This document shows positions 5,036-24,000 of a DNA stretch of 24,000 nt, in pieces. Location: positions 1-24,000 of the forward strand of contig CAMLBO010000005.1 of NCBI GenBank assembly GCA_946478305.1, read 5' to 3'. A program made the position numbers and the translations under genes. Position 1 is the stretch's first letter. Each line of letters opens with the position of its first letter. The stretch comes from an uncultured Enterobacterales bacterium (GTDB lineage: Bacteria; Pseudomonadota; Gammaproteobacteria; Enterobacterales; Enterobacteriaceae). The notes under the pieces are model-generated. The model worked only from the letters and a program-made list of their open reading frames with translations. It searched no databases and was not told the DNA's origin.

Positions 5036-8601
<3,566 letters not shown>

Positions 8602-9912: not shown

Positions 9913-13415
<3,503 letters not shown>

Positions 13416-14966: not shown

Positions 14967-16487
14967 ATGAACGATAAAGTAAAACAAGACGATATTAACA
15001 AAGCCCTTTGGGACGCCTGCGATACCTTCCGTGGCACCATCAGCGCGGACACCTACAAAGATTTCATCCTCACCATGCTGTTTCTGAAATACATCTCCGA
15101 CGTCTGGCAGGACCATTACGACACCTACGCTAAACAGCACGGCGACTCGCCGGAGCTGATTGAAGCGCTGATGAAAAGTGAGCGTTTTGTTCTGCCGAAA
15201 GACGCCAGTTATTACGCCATTTACGCCCGCCGCCATGAAGCCAAAAACGGTGAGCGTATCGATCAGGCGCTGCACGCCATTGAAGAAGCCAACGGCACCA
15301 AACTGAAAGATGCCGGGAAAAGCGTGTTTCAGGATATCTCTTTCAACACCGATAAGCTGGGCGAAGAAAAGCAAAAAAACGGCATTCTGCGTGAACTGAT
15401 CGAGCATTTCGATAAACCTGAGCTGAACCTTAAACCGAGCCGCGTCGGCACGCTGGATGTGATCGGTAACGCTTATGAATACCTGATCAAGAAATTTGCG
15501 TCTAACGGCGGTCAGAAAGCCGGTGAGTTTTATACCCCGCCGGAAGTCTCGGATTTGATCTCTGAACTGTTAGACCCGCAGCCGGGTGACAGCATTTGCG
15601 ATCCGGCCTGTGGTTCGGCCTCGTTGCTTATCAAATGTGGTGCCCGTGTGCGCACCAATCACGGTTCGAAGCATTATGCGTTGTACGGTCAGGAAGCTAT
15701 CGGCTCCACCTGGGCGCTGGCAAAAATGAACATGTTCCTGCACGGCGAAGACAACCACAAAATCGAGTGGGGCGATACCATTCGCAACCCGAAATTGCTG
15801 GATAAAAACGGTGACCTGATGCTGTTTGATATCGTCACCGCCAACCCGCCGTTCAGCCTGGATAAGTGGGGCCACGACGATGCGGCATCTGATAAATTTG
15901 ATCGCTTCCATCGCGGTGTGCCGCCAAAAACCAAGGGCGACTATGCGTTTATCTCACATATGATCCAAACGCTAAAACCCGCCACCGGTCGCATGGGCGT
16001 GGTTGTCCCGCACGGCGTGCTGTTCCGTGGCTCCAGCGAAGGGAAAATTCGCCAGCAGCTGATCGAAGAAAACCTGCTCGATGCGGTGATCGGCCTGCCG
16101 GAAAAACTGTTTTACGGCACCGGTATTCCGGCGGCGATCCTTATCTTTAAGAAAGATAAAATCGACAACAATGTGCTGTTTATCGATGCCAGCCGGGAAT
16201 ATAAATCCGGTAAAAACCAGAACGAACTCAGCCCGGAAAATATCGCTAAAATCATCGCGACTTACCGCGAAGGCGGCAGCGTCGATAAATACGCCTATAT
16301 CGCCAGCCTGAAAGAGATTCAGGATAACGACTACAACCTGAATATCCCGCGCTATGTCGATACCTTCGAAGAAGAAGATGAAATTGACTTGGTGGCGGTG
16401 CGCGAAGAACGTCTGGCGTTAACGGCGCAGCTGGATGCGCTGGAAGTGGAAATGGCGGGCTATCTCAAGGAGCTGGGTTATGAGTAA
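14967..16487 (+). CDS. hsdM: Type I restriction-modification system, N6-adenine DNA methyltransferase subunit
   Basis: 506 aa. It has an HsdM N-terminal helical domain (LWDACDTFRGTISADTYKDFILTMLFLKYISD), AdoMet motif I DPACGSASLL, and catalytic motif IV TANPPFSL. Confidence 0.93.
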   Translation: MNDKVKQDDINKALWDACDTFRGTISADTYKDFILTMLFLKYISDVWQDHYDTYAKQHGDSPELIEALMKSERFVLPKDASYYAIYARRHEAKNGERIDQALHAIEEANGTKLKDAGKSVFQDISFNTDKLGEEKQKNGILRELIEHFDKPELNLKPSRVGTLDVIGNAYEYLIKKFASNGGQKAGEFYTPPEVSDLISELLDPQPGDSICDPACGSASLLIKCGARVRTNHGSKHYALYGQEAIGSTWALAKMNMFLHGEDNHKIEWGDTIRNPKLLDKNGDLMLFDIVTANPPFSLDKWGHDDAASDKFDRFHRGVPPKTKGDYAFISHMIQTLKPATGRMGVVVPHGVLFRGSSEGKIRQQLIEENLLDAVIGLPEKLFYGTGIPAAILIFKKDKIDNNVLFIDASREYKSGKNQNELSPENIAKIIATYREGGSVDKYAYIASLKEIQDNDYNLNIPRYVDTFEEEDEIDLVAVREERLALTAQLDALEVEMAGYLKELGYE

Positions 16488-17685
16488 GGTTCCGGCGGGT
16501 TGGTATGAAGACGTTTTTGGTAATGTTATGTCATTCAAAAATGGGCTTAACTTTACCAAGTCCGCTTTAGGTGAAACTATAAAAATAGTTGGTGTTGGTG
16601 ACTTTAAAGACTATTCAGAGTTGCGTAATACTCAATGTCTTGAGTTTATACAGGTCGCAAATAAGATCCGTGATGAAGAGTTACTAAAGGACGGAGACTT
16701 GTTGTTTGTTCGCTCAAATGGCAATAAAAATCTCATTGGACGTTGTCTATTTTTTCCTTTTGTCAAAGAACGTCTTTCATTTTCTGGTTTTACTATCCGT
16801 GGTCGAGTCGATAGTAAGAAAATCCTTCCTGAATATGCTTCATATCTTTCAAGGTCATCGTTGGTCAAAGAGCAAATTAATCAGAATGGCGGTGGAACTA
16901 ATATTTCTAATTTGAGCCAACAGATTTTAAATGACATTGAGTTTCTGCGGCCCCCACTCCCAGAACAAACCAAAATCGCCCAAATCCTCTCCACCTGGGA
17001 TAAGGCGATTGCGACCACTGAACAACTAATTAGCAACAGCCAGCAGCAGAAAAAAGCGCTGATGCAGAGTTTATTGACGGGAAAGAAACGGTTACCGGGG
17101 TTTGAGGGGGAGTGGGTAGTTCAGCCTTTAGATAATTGGATAGAAGAATATAAAAAGAAATCATCTGAAAATGATCAGTATGAAGTATTAACCTCTTCAA
17201 GGAATGGTCTTGTCCTACAAAGTGATTACTTTGAAAATAATAGAATCTCATCGCGTGAGAATATAGGGTTTAATATTATACCTGAAGGTTATGTTACTTA
17301 TCGCTCCAGAAGCGATGACGGACGATTTACTTTCAATATTAATAAGTTAGGTTTCACTGGGCTCATCAGTATATATTACCCCGTATTTTATTTTCCAAAT
17401 GGTAGTCTGGAATTTTTCATTAATATGCTTAGCTTCAATGAGCGTCTGTTTGAGGCTCATAGTGTAGGAACATCTCAAAAAGTTCTTTCGATTAATGCGT
17501 TGAAGTTAATGAGATTTAAAATTCCCCCACTCCCAGAACAGCAAAAAATCGCCGCCGTACTCACCGCTGCCGATAACGAAATCGAACTGCTGCAAAAGAA
17601 ACTGTCCTTTCTAAAACAGGAAAAAACCGCATTAATGCAGCAATTGCTGACCGGTAAGCGCCGGGTGAAGGTGGAGGCAGCCTGA
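16480..17685 (+). CDS. hsdS: Type I restriction-modification system, specificity subunit
   Basis: Start set to ATG 16480, with AAGGAG 7 nt upstream; it overlaps hsdM by 8 nt (ATGAGTAA). Two divergent AT-rich target-recognition domains are each followed by a conserved helical repeat (PPLPEQTKIAQILSTWDKAI..ALMQSLLTGKKRL and PPLPEQQKIAAVLTAADNEI..ALMQQLLTGKRRV). Confidence 0.92.
   Translation: MSKVPAGWYEDVFGNVMSFKNGLNFTKSALGETIKIVGVGDFKDYSELRNTQCLEFIQVANKIRDEELLKDGDLLFVRSNGNKNLIGRCLFFPFVKERLSFSGFTIRGRVDSKKILPEYASYLSRSSLVKEQINQNGGGTNISNLSQQILNDIEFLRPPLPEQTKIAQILSTWDKAIATTEQLISNSQQQKKALMQSLLTGKKRLPGFEGEWVVQPLDNWIEEYKKKSSENDQYEVLTSSRNGLVLQSDYFENNRISSRENIGFNIIPEGYVTYRSRSDDGRFTFNINKLGFTGLISIYYPVFYFPNGSLEFFINMLSFNERLFEAHSVGTSQKVLSINALKLMRFKIPPLPEQQKIAAVLTAADNEIELLQKKLSFLKQEKTALMQQLLTGKRRVKVEAA
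16951..16967 (+). repeat. 17-bp direct repeat, copy 1, at the start of the hsdS central conserved region
   Basis: cccccactcccagaaca is identical to 17524-17540. It encodes PPLPEQ at the TRD1/conserved-region boundary. Confidence 0.9.
17524..17540 (+). repeat. 17-bp direct repeat, copy 2, at the start of the hsdS distal conserved region
   Basis: cccccactcccagaaca is identical to 16951-16967, 573 bp downstream of copy 1. It is followed by a shared aaaatcgcc. Confidence 0.9.
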
Positions 17686-18713
17686 TGGATGAGAAGAATT
17701 TGCCGTTAGCACCTGAAGGTGAGTTTGTGCTGTTTCAAAGCGCGGACGATCGCGTACAGGTGGAATGCCGCTTTGAGTCGGAGACGCTGTGGCTTTCACA
17801 GGCGATGATTTGTGACTTGTACGGTAAAGCCAAGGCCACCATCAGCGAGCATATCAGCCATATTTTTGCTGAGCATGAACTGGAAGAGAATTCAGTTGTT
17901 CGGTTTTACCGAACAACTGCGGCTGATGGAAAAGCCTATAATGTTCAGTATTTTAGCCTGCCGTTAATTCTGGCTGTCGGTTACCGTGTCCGTTCCGCTC
18001 GCGGCACCCAGTTCCGCCAGTGGGCAACGCAAACCTTGCAGGAATATGTCATTAAAGGGTTTGTGATGGACGACCAGCGGCTGAAAAATCCGCCGGTTGG
18101 GCAGTCGGTGGTGCCGGATTATTTCGACGAGATGCTGGAACGCATCCGCGATATTCGCGCCAGCGAACGCCGGGTGTATCTGCGGATTAAAGATATTTTT
18201 GCCATGGCGGCGGATTATCAGCCATCGGATAAAGACACTGCCCGTTTCTTTCAGGCAATTCAGAACAAACTGCATTACGCCTGTACCGGTCTGACGGCGG
18301 CGGAAATTATTGCTCAGCGTGCGGACGCCAGCCAGCCGGATATGGGGCTGACCAGTTTCAAATATGATAACGTGCGTAAAACCGATATCACCATTGCCAA
18401 AAATTATCTGCGTGAAGAAGAAATTGACCAGCTTAACCGCATTATTTCCATGTGGCTGGATTATGCCGAAGACCAGACCAAACGCCGTCAGCAAATATTC
18501 TTAAAAAGCTGGCAGGATAAGCTGGAGCAGTTTCTTAACTTTAATGAACTGGATATTTTGCAGGGTAGCGGTAAAACCAGTAAAAAAGCAGCGGATGAAA
18601 AAGCCTGCCAGCAATATGAACAATTCGCCGAACAGCGCCGCCGCCTGAAAGAAGCCGAAGGCGCCAAAAGTAATATCGAGGCGCTTCACGCCATTGCGCA
18701 GAAAAAGGACTAA
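17685..18713 (+). CDS. RhuM-family protein (COG3943-like; 'DNA-binding protein in cluster with Type I R-M system'), embedded between hsdS and hsdR
   Basis: 342 aa. Its ATG shares one base with the hsdS stop (TGATG, 17683-17687), with GGAGG 7 nt upstream. The core ..LILAVGYRVRSARGTQFRQWATQTLQEYVIKGFVMDDQRLK.. and the N-terminal HTH-like ..LWLSQAMICDLYGKAKATISEHISHIF.. match my recollection of the RhuM family. This was not verified by a search. Confidence 0.7.
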   Translation: MDEKNLPLAPEGEFVLFQSADDRVQVECRFESETLWLSQAMICDLYGKAKATISEHISHIFAEHELEENSVVRFYRTTAADGKAYNVQYFSLPLILAVGYRVRSARGTQFRQWATQTLQEYVIKGFVMDDQRLKNPPVGQSVVPDYFDEMLERIRDIRASERRVYLRIKDIFAMAADYQPSDKDTARFFQAIQNKLHYACTGLTAAEIIAQRADASQPDMGLTSFKYDNVRKTDITIAKNYLREEEIDQLNRIISMWLDYAEDQTKRRQQIFLKSWQDKLEQFLNFNELDILQGSGKTSKKAADEKACQQYEQFAEQRRRLKEAEGAKSNIEALHAIAQKKD

Positions 18714-18716
18714 CGG

Positions 18717-21700
18717 ATGTCACAGCCTGAACCACACCCCCTGCCAAAGTTTGAAGAAGAGTACATCGCCAAATTACCGGCGCTGACGCTGATGACCCAC
18801 ATGGGCTGGACGTTTCTTTCCCCCGCTCAGGCGCTGGCGGCACGCGGCGGCAAGCTGGATCAGGTGGTATTGCGTGATGAACTGCACCGGATGCTGAAAA
18901 CCCGCCGTTTTCATTACGCGGGCAAAGTGTATCCGCTGTCTGAAAAATCCATTGAAAATATCATTAGCGAAGTATGCAGCCCGGCCCTGAATGAAGGATT
19001 GATGTCGGCTAATCAGCGGATGCACAACCATTTGCTGTACGGCATCACGGTGACCGAGTTTGTCGATGGGCGTAAATCCAGCCAGACCGTCGAACTGGTC
19101 GACTGGAAAAATATCGCCAACAACAGCTTTTTGGTCACCGAAGAGTTTCGCGTGACCCGCACCGGCGGCATTGGCTCATCGCATTATGATTGCCGCAAAC
19201 CGGATATCGTCGGTTTTGTGAATGGCATTCCGATGGTGGTGATCGAGGCTAAACGCCCGGTCAGCCAGGGCAAAAAAGGCCCGACTATCGACGAAGGTAT
19301 TTCCCAAAACCTGCGTAATCAGATGCACGACGAAATCCCGCATCTGTTCGTCTACAGCCAGATTTTGCTCTCGATTAACGGCAGCGACGGGCGTTATGGC
19401 ACCTGCGGCACGCCGTTAAAATTTTGGGGCGGCTGGCGCGAAGAAGATATTACCGATGCTGAAATGCTGGCGGTGAAGAACAAAAGACTGAACCCGCAGC
19501 AGGTTTCCGGCTTGTTCAGCCACCGTAAGCCGGAAGATTTACACTGGTATCAGAATCTGATTGCCGGCGGCCATCTGGCGGTGACGGGACAGGATCAGAT
19601 GCTTATCAGCCTGCTGTTGCCGGCGCGCTTATTGGAGATGGTTCGCCTGTATACGCTGTTCGACAAAAAGGTTGGCCGGGTGATTGCCCGTTATCAGCAG
19701 GTGTTTGGCATCAAACGGCTCACCGATCGCATCAAGCTCAAAAACGCCCACGGCGGTCGCGAAGGAGGGGTGATTTGGCATACCACCGGTTCCGGTAAAT
19801 CGCTGACCATGGTGCTGTTCAGTAAAGCGCTGCTGCTGGATGAATCGCTGAAAGCCTGCCGTTTCATCATCGTTACCGACCGGGTGGATCTGCAAGCCCA
19901 GCTGAGTAAAAGTTTTCTGTCGGGCGATCAGCTTTCCGGTAAGCATGATTTTAAGAAAGCGATGGCCAACTCCGGTGCGCGTCTGGCGCAGCAAATTAGC
20001 CAGGGTAAACAGCGGATTATCTTCTCGCTGATCCAGAAGTTTACCTCGGCCACCGAATTACCCGAGTGCCATAACGACGATGCCAATATCGTGGTGCTGA
20101 TCGACGAAGGCCACCGCAGTCAGGGAGGCGAAAATCATATTCGCATGAAGCTGGCGCTGCCTAATGCGGCTTTCGTGGCGTTTACCGGCACGCCGCTGCT
20201 TAAAGACGATAAAACCACCAACAAATTCGGCCCGATTGTTCACGCCTATACCATGCAGCGCGCGGTGGAAGATAAAGCCGTCACGCCGCTGTTATATGAA
20301 GAGCGCAAACCCGAACTGAACGTGAATGAAAAAGCGGTCGACAGTTGGTTTGATCGTATTACTGTTGGTTTGAGCGACGCGCAGCGCGCCGACTTAAAAC
20401 GTAAATATTCCCGCAAAGGCGCAGTGCAAAGCGCCGACGATCGTATTCATTTAATCGCGCTGGACGTCGCCAATCACTTCAGTAAACACATCACCGAGGG
20501 GCTAAAAGGTCAGTTGGCCTGTGACAGCAAACTGTCTGCCATCAAATATAAAAAGTACCTCGACGAAGCGGGCTTGTTTGAGTCCGCCGTGGTGATGAGC
20601 CCGCCGGATACCCGCGAAGGCAATACCAGTATTAATGAAGCAACCCAGCCAGAAGTGTCGAAATGGTGGAAAGACAACGTTGGCAGTGAGGATGAGCGGA
20701 AATATACCCAGAAACTGATTGGGCGTTTTGAGAAAGACGAAAAGTTGAAATTGCTGATCGTGGTCGATAAGTTGTTGACCGGTTTCGATGAGCCGCTTAA
20801 TGCGGTGTTGTATATCGATAAATCCCTGAAAGGGCATAACCTCATTCAGGCCATTGCACGCGTTAACCGACTGCATGATAAGAAGAAAGAAGGCTTGCTT
20901 ATCGACTATCGCGGTGTACTGGCGGAGCTGGACACCACCATCGCCAAATATCAGGATCTGGCTTCGCGCACACAGGGCGGCTATGACATCAATGATATCG
21001 ATGGTTTATATAATCAGATGAGCAGCGAATATAAGCGCTTGCCGTTATTGCATAAAACGTTATGGGCAATCTTCGACGCGGTGCCGAATAAAAGCGATAC
21101 CGAGCAGTTGCGTCAGGCATTGGTGCCTAAAATGGAGCAGCGTAACGGCGAGTTTGTCGATATTCACCTGAAGGCACGTGAAGATTTCTACGAGGCACTG
21201 AGTGAGTTTGCCAGTTGCCTGAAAGTGGCATTGCAATCGGCGACGTTCTTCGAAGACAACAGTTTTAGTGATGCCGACCGTAAAAGTTATAAAGAGACCG
21301 TGCGCCAGCTTTCGATTTTGCGTCAGCAAATTAAAGCCGATGCCGGTGAAACGGTGGATTACGACGAATACGCCGAACAGGTGAAAAAACTGCTCGATAA
21401 ACACGTGGTCGGCGTGCAAATCAAAGAGCCTGACGCAGTGTACGACGTGTCGAAAATGGGGCAGCAGAAGCCCAAAACACCACATCCGTCGTGGTCAGAA
21501 GATAAAACCCGCAACGAAACTGACATCATTAAAACGCGTGTCACCAAAATGATTGAGCAGGAATTGCACGATGATCCTTATGCGCAGGAAGCATTCTCGG
21601 CTCTGCTACTAAAAACGATAGAGGAAGCGGAAAAACAGTTCGATCATCCTTCCAAGCAATATTTGCTTTATACCGAGTTTATGCAGGATGTTGAAAACCG

Positions 21701-22037
21701 CCGGTTGCAGGATATCCCCGATGCTTTTGGTGGTAATAAACACGCACAGGCTTATTACGGCGTTTTCAAGAAAGAGCTACCTCAGGTTTTTGCAGTGGCA
21801 GATGCTCAGGTCGAAAAGAAATGGGTGGCACTGGCGTTTGTGATTGATACTGTGGTCCACCGCGCCGTCACCGAAAACTCTATCAACACGCAAAATATTG
21901 AAGCTGAGATTCGAAAAAATCTTCTCACAATGCTGTTTCACGAGTGCAGGGACGTAGGTGCGGGTATCGATCAGGTGAATAGGATTGTCGAAAGCGTGGT
22001 GCAAATCACCCGCGTCGGCCTGAATGGTGTGTCATAA
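18717..22037 (+). CDS. hsdR: Type I restriction-modification system, restriction (endonuclease/translocase) subunit
   Basis: 1106 aa. It has a PD-(D/E)xK nuclease motif (KPDIVGFVNGIPMVVIEAKRP). SF2 helicase motifs are present: I HTTGSGKSLTM, II VLIDEGHRSQ, III FTGTPL, VI QAIARVNR. The start is 3 nt after the preceding stop, with AAGGA 7 nt upstream. Confidence 0.93.
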   Translation: MSQPEPHPLPKFEEEYIAKLPALTLMTHMGWTFLSPAQALAARGGKLDQVVLRDELHRMLKTRRFHYAGKVYPLSEKSIENIISEVCSPALNEGLMSANQRMHNHLLYGITVTEFVDGRKSSQTVELVDWKNIANNSFLVTEEFRVTRTGGIGSSHYDCRKPDIVGFVNGIPMVVIEAKRPVSQGKKGPTIDEGISQNLRNQMHDEIPHLFVYSQILLSINGSDGRYGTCGTPLKFWGGWREEDITDAEMLAVKNKRLNPQQVSGLFSHRKPEDLHWYQNLIAGGHLAVTGQDQMLISLLLPARLLEMVRLYTLFDKKVGRVIARYQQVFGIKRLTDRIKLKNAHGGREGGVIWHTTGSGKSLTMVLFSKALLLDESLKACRFIIVTDRVDLQAQLSKSFLSGDQLSGKHDFKKAMANSGARLAQQISQGKQRIIFSLIQKFTSATELPECHNDDANIVVLIDEGHRSQGGENHIRMKLALPNAAFVAFTGTPLLKDDKTTNKFGPIVHAYTMQRAVEDKAVTPLLYEERKPELNVNEKAVDSWFDRITVGLSDAQRADLKRKYSRKGAVQSADDRIHLIALDVANHFSKHITEGLKGQLACDSKLSAIKYKKYLDEAGLFESAVVMSPPDTREGNTSINEATQPEVSKWWKDNVGSEDERKYTQKLIGRFEKDEKLKLLIVVDKLLTGFDEPLNAVLYIDKSLKGHNLIQAIARVNRLHDKKKEGLLIDYRGVLAELDTTIAKYQDLASRTQGGYDINDIDGLYNQMSSEYKRLPLLHKTLWAIFDAVPNKSDTEQLRQALVPKMEQRNGEFVDIHLKAREDFYEALSEFASCLKVALQSATFFEDNSFSDADRKSYKETVRQLSILRQQIKADAGETVDYDEYAEQVKKLLDKHVVGVQIKEPDAVYDVSKMGQQKPKTPHPSWSEDKTRNETDIIKTRVTKMIEQELHDDPYAQEAFSALLLKTIEEAEKQFDHPSKQYLLYTEFMQDVENRRLQDIPDAFGGNKHAQAYYGVFKKELPQVFAVADAQVEKKWVALAFVIDTVVHRAVTENSINTQNIEAEIRKNLLTMLFHECRDVGAGIDQVNRIVESVVQITRVGLNGVS

Positions 22038-22044
22038 GGCAAAA

Positions 22045-22824
22045 ATGAGCGTACGCATCGCAATTCCGCGCCCGAAAAAACATTCGCCAGATCTCTGTTT
22101 TCACTATGGAGATGAGCGCATCTGTTTTGAGATCAGCGTCCGACGCAGTGTGAAAAGCAAGGTGCTGATCAAAGTACACCCGGATTGCAGGGTGCTGGTC
22201 GCCGCGCCTGAAAACAGTTCCGACGAAGAAGTGCTCGGTGCGGTGAAAAAACGTGGGCGCTGGATCTGGCAACAATTGCGGGATTTCCGTGCCCAGCAGC
22301 AACATATTACTGAACGACAGTACATCAGCGGTGAAAGCCACTTTTACCTCGGCAAACAGTACATGCTGAAAGTGCTGGTGGAGCCGGAGGAAAAGCAGCG
22401 GGTTAAAATGCTGCGCGGTAAATTGGAAATTACTGTGCGGGAAAGAAACCCCGAGCGTATCCGCGTGCTGCTCAATGAATGGTACAAAGACCGAGCTAAA
22501 GAAGTGTTCGCTCGCAGACTGGAGGCGATGCTGGATCAGGCATTATGGGTTAATGAGCGGCCGCCGCTGCGCGTGCAAACCATGCAAACTCAATGGGGAA
22601 GCTGTTCACCTCAGGGGCGTATTACGCTGAACCCACATCTGGTTAAGGCTCCGCGTGAAAGCATTGATTACGTCATTTTGCACGAGCTTTGCCATCTGGC
22701 GGAACACAACCACAGTGAGCAATTTTACCGGCTAATGAAGCAGGTGATGCCGCACTGGGAGAAAATCAAATCACATCTGGATGGCATAGCGGCGGCGTTG
22801 CTCAATGGCAGTCATTCGGCGTAA
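22045..22824 (+). CDS. DUF45 / YgjP-like (COG1451, SprT/WLM-like) HExxH zinc metallopeptidase
   Basis: Start set to ATG 22045, 7 nt after the hsdR stop with AAGG upstream. The track start 22024 would overlap hsdR by 14 nt. The zinc site is in VILHELCHLAEHNHSEQFYRLM. The N-terminal ..ISVRRSVKSKVLIKVHPDCRVLVAAP..VKKRGRWIWQQL.. is typical of DUF45 proteins as recalled. Confidence 0.8.
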   Translation: MSVRIAIPRPKKHSPDLCFHYGDERICFEISVRRSVKSKVLIKVHPDCRVLVAAPENSSDEEVLGAVKKRGRWIWQQLRDFRAQQQHITERQYISGESHFYLGKQYMLKVLVEPEEKQRVKMLRGKLEITVRERNPERIRVLLNEWYKDRAKEVFARRLEAMLDQALWVNERPPLRVQTMQTQWGSCSPQGRITLNPHLVKAPRESIDYVILHELCHLAEHNHSEQFYRLMKQVMPHWEKIKSHLDGIAAALLNGSHSA

Positions 22825-22853: not shown

Positions 22854-24000
22854 ATGAAAAAACAACGTGGTTTGGTGGATGACCTCGCTTTACTGGATAG
22901 CGTAGTTTTAGCCAGCTTTATTGCCTCACTGTATGGCGAATATGAACTCCTGGATACGAGAATAGAACGGCTATTGTTAAAAAACGACACCAGTGCATTA
23001 ATTAAAACGCTTAAAAAAGAGATAAAATCTCTGGGTCGATCCTCCTATTTTTACAGTTATTATCAAGCCGGTGAGTTAGCTCACAATGTATATCAATTAA
23101 AAAGTGAAATCGAAGATAATGTTTTACCTGACTTTCCCGATCAGGCATTTCAATTGGTCAATGATCTACTGGAGACTGCTGAAAATAGCCTGAACCGATG
23201 TGATGATTCTGATGGTAGCGTCGGTGATGTTTACTTGGATATTTGTTTATTATGGTTAAAATCAGCCAGCCTGAGTTCTGTGCCTGCGACAGGTTGGTTG
23301 CCGATCATTAAACAATTAGCCGATAGTAATGATTATGGCGTGCTTGATCCTTTATTACCCAACGCCAATATCCTTCTTTCGCAAGGAGAGTTACGCCAAC
23401 TGGCCGCTTATTATGAAGACGGATTACGTGCCTCGCTCAAAACGAAAAAAAGGGATGAATTCCGTGATATTAGCTGGTCAGTTAACCTCCATAGCGTGGC
23501 TGAAGCGTTAAAAGACCCGGCAATCTATATTCAGGCAACATTACTGGTCAGCCCTTCGCCAAATCATATGCAGATGGAAAGCATGGTTGAGTTTAGCCTG
23601 CATTGTGGTGCGTATGATGAGGCAATGAAATGGCTGCAAAAAGACTGGGGAGAAAGTGGCTGGAAAAAGCCCAATGCAACACGCCTGTCACTATTAGCCG
23701 ACTGCTATCAGGGGCTGAATCAGCCAGAAAAACGCCTGGCTGCGCTGATTGAGTTGATGGATATAGAACCCACGTTTGAGAATTTCCAAAAAGTGGAGCC
23801 GCTGGTTTCTGAAGATGACGTCCGTCAATTACGTGAGCAATTGATTATCGCTGTCCTCAAAGAGTCTGAACTTGATGACCAGTTAGACCCATTACTCAAA
23901 CTCAATGAATACAGCAAAGCTGAAGAGCTGGCGATAAAGGGCGTCAATGAAATCGCTGAGTGGCATTATACCCAGTTGCTTTCGTTGTTGGATGAAGTGC
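22854..24000 (+). CDS. Hypothetical protein, predicted all-alpha/TPR-like; 3' end lies outside the window (382 codons visible)
   Basis: This ORF is not in the supplied track because it has no stop codon in the window. ATG 22854 is preceded by AAGGAG (22841-22846) with 7-nt spacing. I translated it by hand and found no in-frame stop through 23999 (MKKQRGLVDDLALLDSVVLASFIASLYGEYELLDTRIERLL...HYTQLLSLLDEV). It is AT-rich compared with its neighbours. I did not recognise any family. Confidence 0.75.
   Translation, partial: MKKQRGLVDDLALLDSVVLASFIASLYGEYELLDTRIERLLLKNDTSALIKTLKKEIKSLGRSSYFYSYYQAGELAHNVYQLKSEIEDNVLPDFPDQAFQLVNDLLETAENSLNRCDDSDGSVGDVYLDICLLWLKSASLSSVPATGWLPIIKQLADSNDYGVLDPLLPNANILLSQGELRQLAAYYEDGLRASLKTKKRDEFRDISWSVNLHSVAEALKDPAIYIQATLLVSPSPNHMQMESMVEFSLHCGAYDEAMKWLQKDWGESGWKKPNATRLSLLADCYQGLNQPEKRLAALIELMDIEPTFENFQKVEPLVSEDDVRQLREQLIIAVLKESELDDQLDPLLKLNEYSKAEELAIKGVNEIAEWHYTQLLSLLDEV

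Follow-up and report, generated by a model that had tools for sequence, protein, structure and literature searches.

RhuM, a gene carried between hsdS and hsdR of a type I restriction operon, contains a coding palindrome that co-varies with its putative recognition helix

We analyzed a 24,000-nucleotide stretch of DNA from an uncultured Enterobacterales bacterium (assembly GCA_946478305.1, contig CAMLBO010000005.1, positions 1 to 24,000; hereafter, the window), in which the gene rhuM lies between hsdS and hsdR, the specificity and restriction subunit genes of a type I restriction-modification (R-M) operon. The gene is an ordinary member of the RhuM family (PF13310, COG3943), which corresponds to the candidate single-gene defense system PDC-S05 of PADLOC. 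Within its coding sequence we found a perfect palindrome that recurs with other arms at the same codons of distant homologues, and whose arms co-vary with the putative DNA-recognition helix of the encoded protein. RhuM is probably an autonomous, DNA-reading defense gene that occupies the hsdS–hsdR slot as exchangeable operon cargo. A more specific proposal, which we hold more tentatively, is that RhuM proteins may be abortive-infection effectors with their own cognate operator in the coding sequence: the winged helix-turn-helix (HTH) would bind the 25–27-bp palindrome of codons 70–78, dozens of helix/palindrome classes would exist, and the phage copies outside RhuM genes would be either the sensed signal or decoys resembling the aba element of the BstA system.

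Results

A palindrome in the rhuM coding sequence is conserved at the nucleotide level

A genome-wide search allowing up to 3 mismatches identified the rhuM palindrome (Table 1) as the sole copy in the genome. Scanning the window with at most one mismatch revealed isolated half-sites at positions 6836–6846 and 12661–12671, with one mismatch each and no partner arm, where 0.42 occurrences were expected by chance for all matches. We took these half-sites as chance matches, and a second copy at the operon promoter or elsewhere was rejected, the intragenic copy being the only one genome-wide.

Distant RhuM homologues possess the same structure at the same codons, but with other arms. Of 110 RhuM genes, 78 had a perfect Watson-Crick stem of 9 bp or more centered at residue 74, and only 3 perfect stems of at least 9 bp were detected anywhere else in these 110 genes. 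On a codon-anchored, gap-free alignment, 89.2% of the cells were paired, compared with 65.7% in column shuffles (none of 500 shuffles reached the observed value), and sliding the palindrome partner gave pairing of 19–40%. Double-sided changes were found at all 12 of the stem pairs, and 47 distinct 9-nt arms occurred among the RhuM palindromes. The compensating stem changes alter the protein, giving for example V-V-R..R-T-T, T-I-R..R-I-V, T-T-E..S-V-V, T-C-K..L-Q-V and V-C-A..A-H-T. The palindrome was also present at the same codons in 12 of 14 proteins in which the N-terminal module of RhuM (RhuM-N) is fused to a Fic domain. The literature that we searched seems to contain no description of it.

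Four-fold-degenerate third positions were nearly fixed inside the stem (A in 105 of 110 genes at codon 70 and T in 106 of 110 at codon 78), whereas the third positions flanking the stem were mixed, indicating that selection acts on the nucleotides; the T/C at codon 72 co-varied with the A/G at codon 76. G.U pairs (20) were not in excess over A.C pairs (25), showing that neither RNA strand is favored, as expected for an element that acts as DNA. RNAalifold returned the palindrome helix as the only helix in 138 nt, and the window hairpin has a calculated stability of −17.8 kcal/mol. A search of Rfam over the hairpin gave no match near the gathering score. A reading as an RNA hairpin was rejected on the lack of a wobble excess on either strand, and a reading as a terminator or frameshift element on the lack of a sense-strand T-run, the occurrence of an antisense T-run in part of the family only and the lack of a conserved slippery site.

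Two observations were made on the antisense strand. The palindrome together with the following AATTCTCTTC has a terminator-like score there, and three σ70-like promoter matches lie on the antisense strand of rhuM at window positions 18364–18469 (− strand). These promoter matches are probably chance, because more of them would be expected in the region from shuffled sequence.

The palindrome co-varies with the putative recognition helix

Covariation of the arm nucleotides with each protein column, codons 68–81 excepted, was calculated as entropy-corrected mutual information (z values after regression on entropy). It peaked at residues 50, 51, 55, 54 and 52, at the start of the second HTH helix (z 3.7–5.3), and a second peak was formed by wing residues 83–85 (z 3.4–5.1). 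All of the other approximately 300 positions had z values of 2 or less, and the 154 positions of the C-terminal domain reached a maximum of 1.5. Particular arms went with particular helix motifs: ..CAAG/CTTG.. with (S/T)(S/T)KQN(I/V)SLH, ..TCGG/CCGA.. with K(A/S)K(A/S)TISEH, ..ATCCGG/CCGGAT.. with KDVRTI(N/S)EH, ..ACCGAG/CTCGGT.. with TSxDNISLH, and ..GTTGCA/TGCAAC.. with RDKSVIS(K/R)H. This arm-to-motif code is common to the RhuM and Fic architectures.

Palindromes of the same classes occur on viral contigs outside RhuM genes

Palindromes of the window's class were found on 27 viral contigs, and 10 of these copies lay outside any RhuM homology, in unrelated flanks filled with stop codons. By contrast, two composition-matched control palindromes gave 0 and 0 matches to the viral contigs. 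For two other palindrome classes, the copies outside RhuM genes numbered 102 of 119 (among the matches listed) and 16 of 30.

Several individual copies deserve description. On contig L178 (IMGVR_UViG_3300011919_000059), all 27 bases at positions 2880–2906 are identical to the window palindrome; the copy lies outside a RhuM gene, and the inverted repeat is longer there, with arms of approximately 17 bp (ttattgCAG...CTGcaataa). Viral contig L176 has a window-class palindrome with 13-bp arms at positions 6842–6872, also outside a RhuM gene. The RhuM gene of this contig (3144–4049) is approximately 2.8 kb away, and its own palindrome position is degenerate (peptide SVIQKFRITA). In the AACTATCCGG..CCGGATAGTT class, many of the copies outside RhuM genes are found in one conserved prophage sequence (L197, L201, L205, L208, L209, L213 and others), where the local frame reads ..AINMRLN(A/S)DTFTGDALSW(R/C)WHRTIRNIRIVAS..; a second group has the context ..HSLTTAYPTIRSYRIVAR.

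These data bear on whether the palindrome binds a protein at all. It might instead be an mRNA hairpin that controls the translation or decay of a toxic product, or a functionless quasi-palindrome perfected by template switching during replication, a known route by which quasi-palindromes become perfect. The stable hairpin, and its standing as the only helix that RNAalifold returned, are what such an element would show. However, G.U pairs are not in excess over A.C pairs, and particular bases, beyond the requirement for pairing, are fixed at four-fold sites. In addition, identical palindromes occur outside RhuM genes on viral contigs whereas the control palindromes do not, the covariation is specific to the recognition helix, and the element is not a sense-strand terminator. 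We therefore regard a palindrome that is not bound by protein as unlikely.

RhuM combines a winged-HTH domain with a family-specific C-terminal domain

The AlphaFold model of the window protein, built from an 81-sequence alignment, had a pLDDT (predicted local distance difference test score) of 81. The modeled N-terminal domain comprises three strands, helices at residues 39–46 and 50–62, a β wing at residues 72–91, and two helices that contain the GYRV..FRQWAT core. Foldseek comparison of this domain with predicted viral structures (BFVD) gave 34 matches to Bro-N, KilA-N and Ant-N domains at E<1e-3 (best, 1.4e-8), and a sub-threshold Pfam match to Bro-N was obtained for 14 of the 81 family members. 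The first-pass annotation of this DNA, made from the sequence by eye, had described an HTH-like N-terminus, a conserved GYRV..FRQWAT core and a charged C-terminal tail. The helices, the wing and the Foldseek matches bear out the first of these descriptions, G99, R101, F110, R111, W113 and A114 of the core are indeed invariant in the 81 homologues, and the tail was modeled as one long helix (residues 300–341), which may be an oligomerization helix.

Residues 119–142 were modeled as a disordered linker, and the domain that follows carries most of the invariant polar residues of the protein, namely R153, R158, E161, D177, Y178, Q193, T204, E207, R212, K239, N240 and E246. A structure search of the PDB with this C-terminal domain returned no significant match (best E 2.2), and sequence and profile searches of the PDB with RhuM returned nothing relevant. 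A hidden nuclease, Fic or toxin fold was rejected on the grounds that a confident model (pLDDT 91.7) found no PDB match, and the earlier remark that no catalytic motif is recognizable still holds after the structure search. The window protein gave no match to PF02661 and lacks the Fic motif (HxFx(D/E)GN(G/K)R), and the C-domain model finds no Fic structure. The annotation had also considered that only a generic transcription-factor fold might emerge; this describes the N-terminal domain, which has a DNA-binding fold, but not the conserved C-terminal domain, which is something else.

The best whole-chain Foldseek match in the PDB was DdrC of Deinococcus radiodurans (8u0g, 7udi and 7qvb; E 5e-3, probability 0.99), which likewise has a winged-helix N-terminal domain followed by a helical C-terminal domain. 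However, the TM-score was only 0.23–0.34 and the identity 11%, and DdrC was missed by the search with the C-terminal domain alone; the match between model and structure can thus be taken as a lead, not as evidence of homology.

In other genomes, some RhuM matches were restricted to the first approximately 70 positions of the Pfam model, and all 10 of the 10 such matches that were checked were RhuM-N fusions to Fic/Doc domains. The N-terminal module therefore serves as a DNA-binding head that can be combined with different partners; in RhuM, the C-terminal domain stands at the position that the toxin occupies in its sister proteins. The modularity of RhuM-N and Doc was likewise argued previously (PMC3710099; see also PMC1626090). 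Fusions of this kind, such as BifA of Streptococcus equi, share with the window protein a homologous N-terminal domain of approximately 125 aa and the coding palindrome at the same codons, and PADLOC PDC-S23 models also match the RhuM N module. They differ in the C-terminal half, which is a Fic/Doc domain in the fusions and a RhuM-specific all-α domain here.

RhuM is a large family with a reported anti-phage member

The window protein matched PF13310 (Virulence_RhuM) with 361 bits (cut-off, 33.7; E 3.8e-108) and the PADLOC PDC-S05 model PDLC04852 with 523 bits over residues 8–340 (E 6.6e-158). It has all of the residues that are invariant in 81 family sequences from many phyla, including W36, H56, E65, G99, R101, F110, R111, W113, R158, E161, D177, Y178, Q193, K239, N240 and E246. 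In its full-length hidden Markov model match, two-domain plan, invariant residues and defense-island or R-M context it is like the RhuM family and PDC-S05, from which we found no difference.

At E≤1e-3 the family comprises 24,766 representatives of 50% clusters. All 8000 of the 8000 scored candidates from a word-indexed search passed as RhuM homologues, and a RhuM match was obtained in 116 of the 400 same-class genomes sampled; the window's own genome has a single copy. Homologues with 43–71% identity were found in Proteobacteria, Verrucomicrobiota, Desulfobacterota, Planctomycetota, Nitrospirota, Bacillota, Bacteroidota, Spirochaetota, Actinomycetota, Chlamydiota and Elusimicrobiota, and in a genome of the candidate phyla radiation (Moraniibacteriota). 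No match to the window protein was found among the PHROG phage protein families.

The presence of RhuM inside type I restriction operons, in a slot like that of prrC, is already known (PMC3710099; PADLOC PDC-S05). Its occurrence in R-M operons, together with PrrC and at the position otherwise taken by the Doc toxin, was described by Anantharaman et al. (2013; PMC3710099), who suggested that RhuM is a toxin domain. RhuM was also reported to be enriched beside invertible hsdS genes and appears in a list of genes located between the core hsd genes (PMC9881135). When introduced alone into E. coli B, a PDC-S05 gene whose product has a Virulence_RhuM domain reduced the plating of T7 and T5 by approximately 1000-fold and that of T4 by approximately 10-fold (PMC12881386, Nat Commun 2026); this homologue, which is not the window gene, was over-expressed with isopropyl β-D-1-thiogalactopyranoside (IPTG). 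The literature searched yielded no paper on the mechanism of RhuM.

The family name refers to the virulence phenotype of a rhuM mutant of Salmonella pathogenicity island 3 (SPI-3; PMC7449626). This historical annotation is what speaks for a virulence factor, whereas the family extends across free-living and uncultured phyla, including a Moraniibacteriota metagenome-assembled genome and Nitrospirae, occurs in defense islands and has a modeled DNA-binding fold. A role in virulence thus seems highly improbable.

The hsdS–hsdR slot is a cargo position

To place the window operon among its relatives, we drew 40 loci from same-class genomes and a further 80 by scanning all phyla, and annotated them with profiles built from the window Hsd proteins; these 120 loci and the window gave 119 loci with a scorable full-length RhuM gene. 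Type I genes were present within four genes and on the same strand in 48 of the 119 loci, and none were so placed in the other 71, where RhuM adjoins CRISPR I-C genes, type III or MmeI-type methylases, helicases or plain housekeeping genes. The commonest type I layout was M-rhuM-S (12 loci); the S-rhuM-R layout of the window was found at 4 loci, each with hsdR followed by the peptidase gene. The eight closest sampled RhuM homologues (61–71% identity) were divided equally, four lying in type I operons and four outside.

The closest HsdM and HsdR relatives that we found were those of E. coli (84% and 70% identity, respectively; peptidase, 64%). These operons keep the M-S-[slot]-R-peptidase layout, but a YecA-family gene occupies the slot. 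The gene, annotated as a 227-aa 'YecA family protein', lies at positions 10764–11447 of locus L151 (NZ_CP033378.1) and 10800–11483 of locus L152 (NZ_CP148507.1), where it is followed by the same hsdR and M48 peptidase genes and then by DUF262 genes. The slot thus has at least two unrelated occupants. Moreover, the identities of RhuM and HsdR to the window proteins were discordant (71% and 54%, respectively, in L075; 66% and 36% in L040; 61% and 69% in L074). Because of the YecA-family occupant and these discordant identities, we consider the hsdS–hsdR slot to be a cargo position and rhuM an exchangeable passenger.

The first-pass annotation had inferred from base composition that rhuM was a long-term resident of the operon. 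The GC (guanine plus cytosine) fraction of rhuM (0.46–0.54) does resemble that of hsdM and hsdR (approximately 0.47–0.56), but similar composition does not show long residence, and the swapped slot and the discordant identities led us to reject this claim.

The same annotation compared the gene with prrC, which encodes an anticodon nuclease in the EcoprrI locus (hsdM-hsdS-prrC-hsdR), and suggested that the protein may be a latent effector or sensor guarded by, or guarding, the HsdMSR complex. On such a model, RhuM would be kept latent by contact with HsdMSR and would fire when a phage anti-restriction protein disables the enzyme. rhuM shares with prrC its slot between hsdS and hsdR, its orientation and its co-transcription, is translationally coupled to hsdS, lies in or beside type I operons in 40% of the loci and also occurs in some PrrC loci (PMC3710099). 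By contrast, 60% of RhuM loci have no hsd genes nearby, four of the eight closest sampled homologues lie outside hsd operons, and the nearest operons have a YecA-family gene in the slot, while RhuM and HsdR identities disagree. A RhuM homologue was active alone in a foreign host (PMC12881386). RhuM has no sequence or fold similarity to PrrC; compared with PrrC and RloC, the window protein lacks an N-terminal ABC-ATPase domain (Pfam, NCBIfam and PADLOC) and has no HEPN match, Rx4-6H motif or invariant C-domain histidine, and identity as a PrrC-like HEPN or ABC-ATPase protein was rejected since these three collections gave no signature of either. Finally, the co-varying partner that we detected is a DNA site and not an Hsd protein. 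The analogy of position and the idea of a defense effector or sensor are therefore plausible, and already published, but control of a latent RhuM by HsdMSR is improbable in view of the 71 loci without type I genes, the slot swaps and the homologue that acts alone.

RhuM might also be an operon regulator without effector activity. In the manner of the controller (C) proteins known from type II R-M systems, it would then occupy the palindrome, located between hsdS and hsdR, and tune read-through into hsdR. C proteins are small HTH proteins that bind palindromic C-boxes in their own operon and have diversified into specificity classes. RhuM is likewise an HTH protein in an R-M operon with a putative palindromic site in the same operon, located upstream of hsdR, and this palindrome is the only copy in the genome. 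However, C-boxes lie upstream in non-coding DNA, a second domain is absent from C proteins, and RhuM is mostly found outside R-M systems. The C-terminal domain of approximately 150 aa with about a dozen invariant polar residues, and the Doc toxin on the same N module in sister proteins, also argue against a mere regulator, and a roadblock that arises only after RhuM accumulates would have the wrong timing for establishing an R-M system. We thus give a purely regulatory role little credence.

Tandem RhuM pairs were observed at three loci (L062, 7800–9849; L049, 7926–10702; G081:C1, 319873–321616). The palindrome/helix classes differ within the pairs, and one pair lies inside a type I operon (M-rhuM-rhuM-S).

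The window operon is part of a lower-GC island

The rhuM open reading frame is intact. The hsdS stop codon (TGA, 17683–17685) and the rhuM start codon (ATG, 17685–17687) overlap by 1 base in the common sequence TGATG, and 3 nt separate the rhuM TAA, ending at 18713, from the hsdR ATG at 18717. The first-pass description of a 342-aa RhuM-like gene start-coupled to hsdS was thus correct. The R-M operon is complete, with HsdM, HsdS and HsdR intact, without internal stops and above the TIGR00497, PF01420 and TIGR00348 cut-offs. The coordinates given for hsdS (Table 1) are those of the longest open reading frame, and the real start may be an ATG near position 16480. HsdR is a distant relative of the HsdR of EcoR124I (type IC).

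Together, the six genes hsdM-hsdS-rhuM-hsdR-M48 peptidase-DUF6880 form an island of approximately 9.4 kb with a lower GC, bordered by cytX (0.56–0.64) on one side and by a pentapeptide-repeat/prlC/ada block on the other. Within it, hsdS has the lowest GC of the Hsd genes (0.35–0.42). The window copy of rhuM is located in an R-M island and not in a prophage. The island was probably acquired horizontally, a judgment that we make jointly with that of RhuM as autonomous defense cargo. A YgjP/M48-like peptidase gene follows hsdR in every close relative of the operon (the 'RP' pattern; L041, L044, L045, L061, L074, L075, L090, L124 and E. coli), and seems to be a constant fifth element of the type I lineage represented here.

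Table 1. Features of the rhuM locus, in window coordinates
Feature	Position	Strand	Evidence or remark
hsdM, type I methyltransferase subunit	14967..16487	+	PF02384 E 5.4e-106; PF12161; TIGR00497 above cut-off
hsdS, specificity subunit	16435..17685	+	PF01420; PADLOC Specificity_I E 5.7e-83; AT-rich, 0.35-0.42 GC
rhuM, RhuM-family/PDC-S05 gene, 342 aa, S-R slot	17685..18713	+	PF13310 E 3.8e-108; PDC-S05 E 6.6e-158
N-terminal Bro-N/KilA-N-like winged-HTH domain, aa 12-125	17718..18059	+	AlphaFold; BFVD matches; sub-threshold Pfam Bro-N
Putative recognition helix, aa 50-62	17832..17870	+	residues 50, 51, 52, 54 and 55 co-vary with the palindrome
Perfect palindrome CAGTTGTTCGGT-TTT-ACCGAACAACTG, 12-bp arms, codons 70-78 of rhuM	17893..17919	.	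consensus scan
GYRV..FRQWAT core, G99-T115, end of N domain	17979..18029	+	invariant G99, R101, S104, F110, R111, W113 and A114 (81 homologues, many phyla)
All-α RhuM-specific C domain, aa 143-290	18111..18554	+	model of C domain alone, pLDDT 91.7, predicted TM-score (pTM) 0.81
Long charged C-terminal helix, aa 300-341, poorly conserved sequence	18582..18707	+	AlphaFold
hsdR, restriction subunit	18717..22037	+	TIGR00348 E 1.7e-136; PADLOC REase_I
YgjP-like/M48-type metallopeptidase gene	22024..22824	+	PF01863 E 1.6e-57
DUF6880 gene, 460 aa, low GC (0.38-0.47), last gene of the island	22854..24000, on to contig position 24236	+	

Discussion

We propose that RhuM would act alone as a DNA-reading anti-phage protein of the abortive-infection type. 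A RhuM dimer would bind its cognate palindrome through the N-terminal domain, and the copy in its own gene would be a self site, serving either for auto-repression or to keep the protein inactive in the manner of aba with BstA. Matching sites on phage DNA would trigger or titrate RhuM, and the C-terminal domain, at the position of Doc in the sister proteins, would then deliver the effect. Placement in the operon would lead to co-transfer and co-expression with restriction, a layered defense, rather than to control by the Hsd complex.

A precedent for such an arrangement is BstA, a KilA-N abortive-infection protein whose DNA element, aba, is specific to each variant, overlaps the BstA gene and functions at the DNA level (Owen et al. 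2021, PMC8585504). RhuM also has a KilA-N-like N-terminal domain, a likeness at the level of the fold only, together with a second domain and a short putative cognate DNA element in its own gene. The RhuM palindrome co-varies with the recognition helix and is unlike aba in form, and BstA is borne by prophages whereas the window rhuM is in an R-M island.

Several points weigh against this proposal. The palindrome itself encodes a strand of the domain that contains the recognition helix, and contacts within the protein could therefore account for part of the covariation between helix and palindrome; the mutual-information z-scores are not probabilities, since the sequences are phylogenetically related. 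On the viral contigs, independent events are fewer than the copy counts, as many of the non-RhuM copies lie in a few related prophage backgrounds. The aba element depends on direct CCCGCC repeats and lies at the start of the gene, whereas the RhuM element is a perfect palindrome at codons 70–78. The role of the C-terminal domain as an effector rests on its conservation and its position relative to Doc, because it has no recognizable catalytic fold, and the published defense phenotype, obtained with a different homologue under IPTG over-expression, would extend to the window gene by analogy. Lastly, type I genes accompany RhuM in 40% of loci, much more often than chance would give, and a functional link outside the model favored here may lie behind this association.

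For the window, these results mean that rhuM is to be annotated as a RhuM/PDC-S05 cargo gene and not as a new PrrC analogue. RhuM is a huge family, reported to be phage-protective, whose C-terminal domain lacks a relative of solved structure. Strict selection at the DNA level acts on its coding palindrome, which follows the recognition helix in its variation and recurs on phage DNA, and which turns 'function unknown' into a concrete and cheaply testable hypothesis. If the hypothesis is true, RhuM (approximately 25,000 clusters at 50% identity) would be a defense system made of a protein plus a DNA site, the copies of RhuM that type I operons carry would sense specific sites in phage DNA independently, and the principle of a cognate DNA element, as in BstA–aba, would extend to a far larger family.

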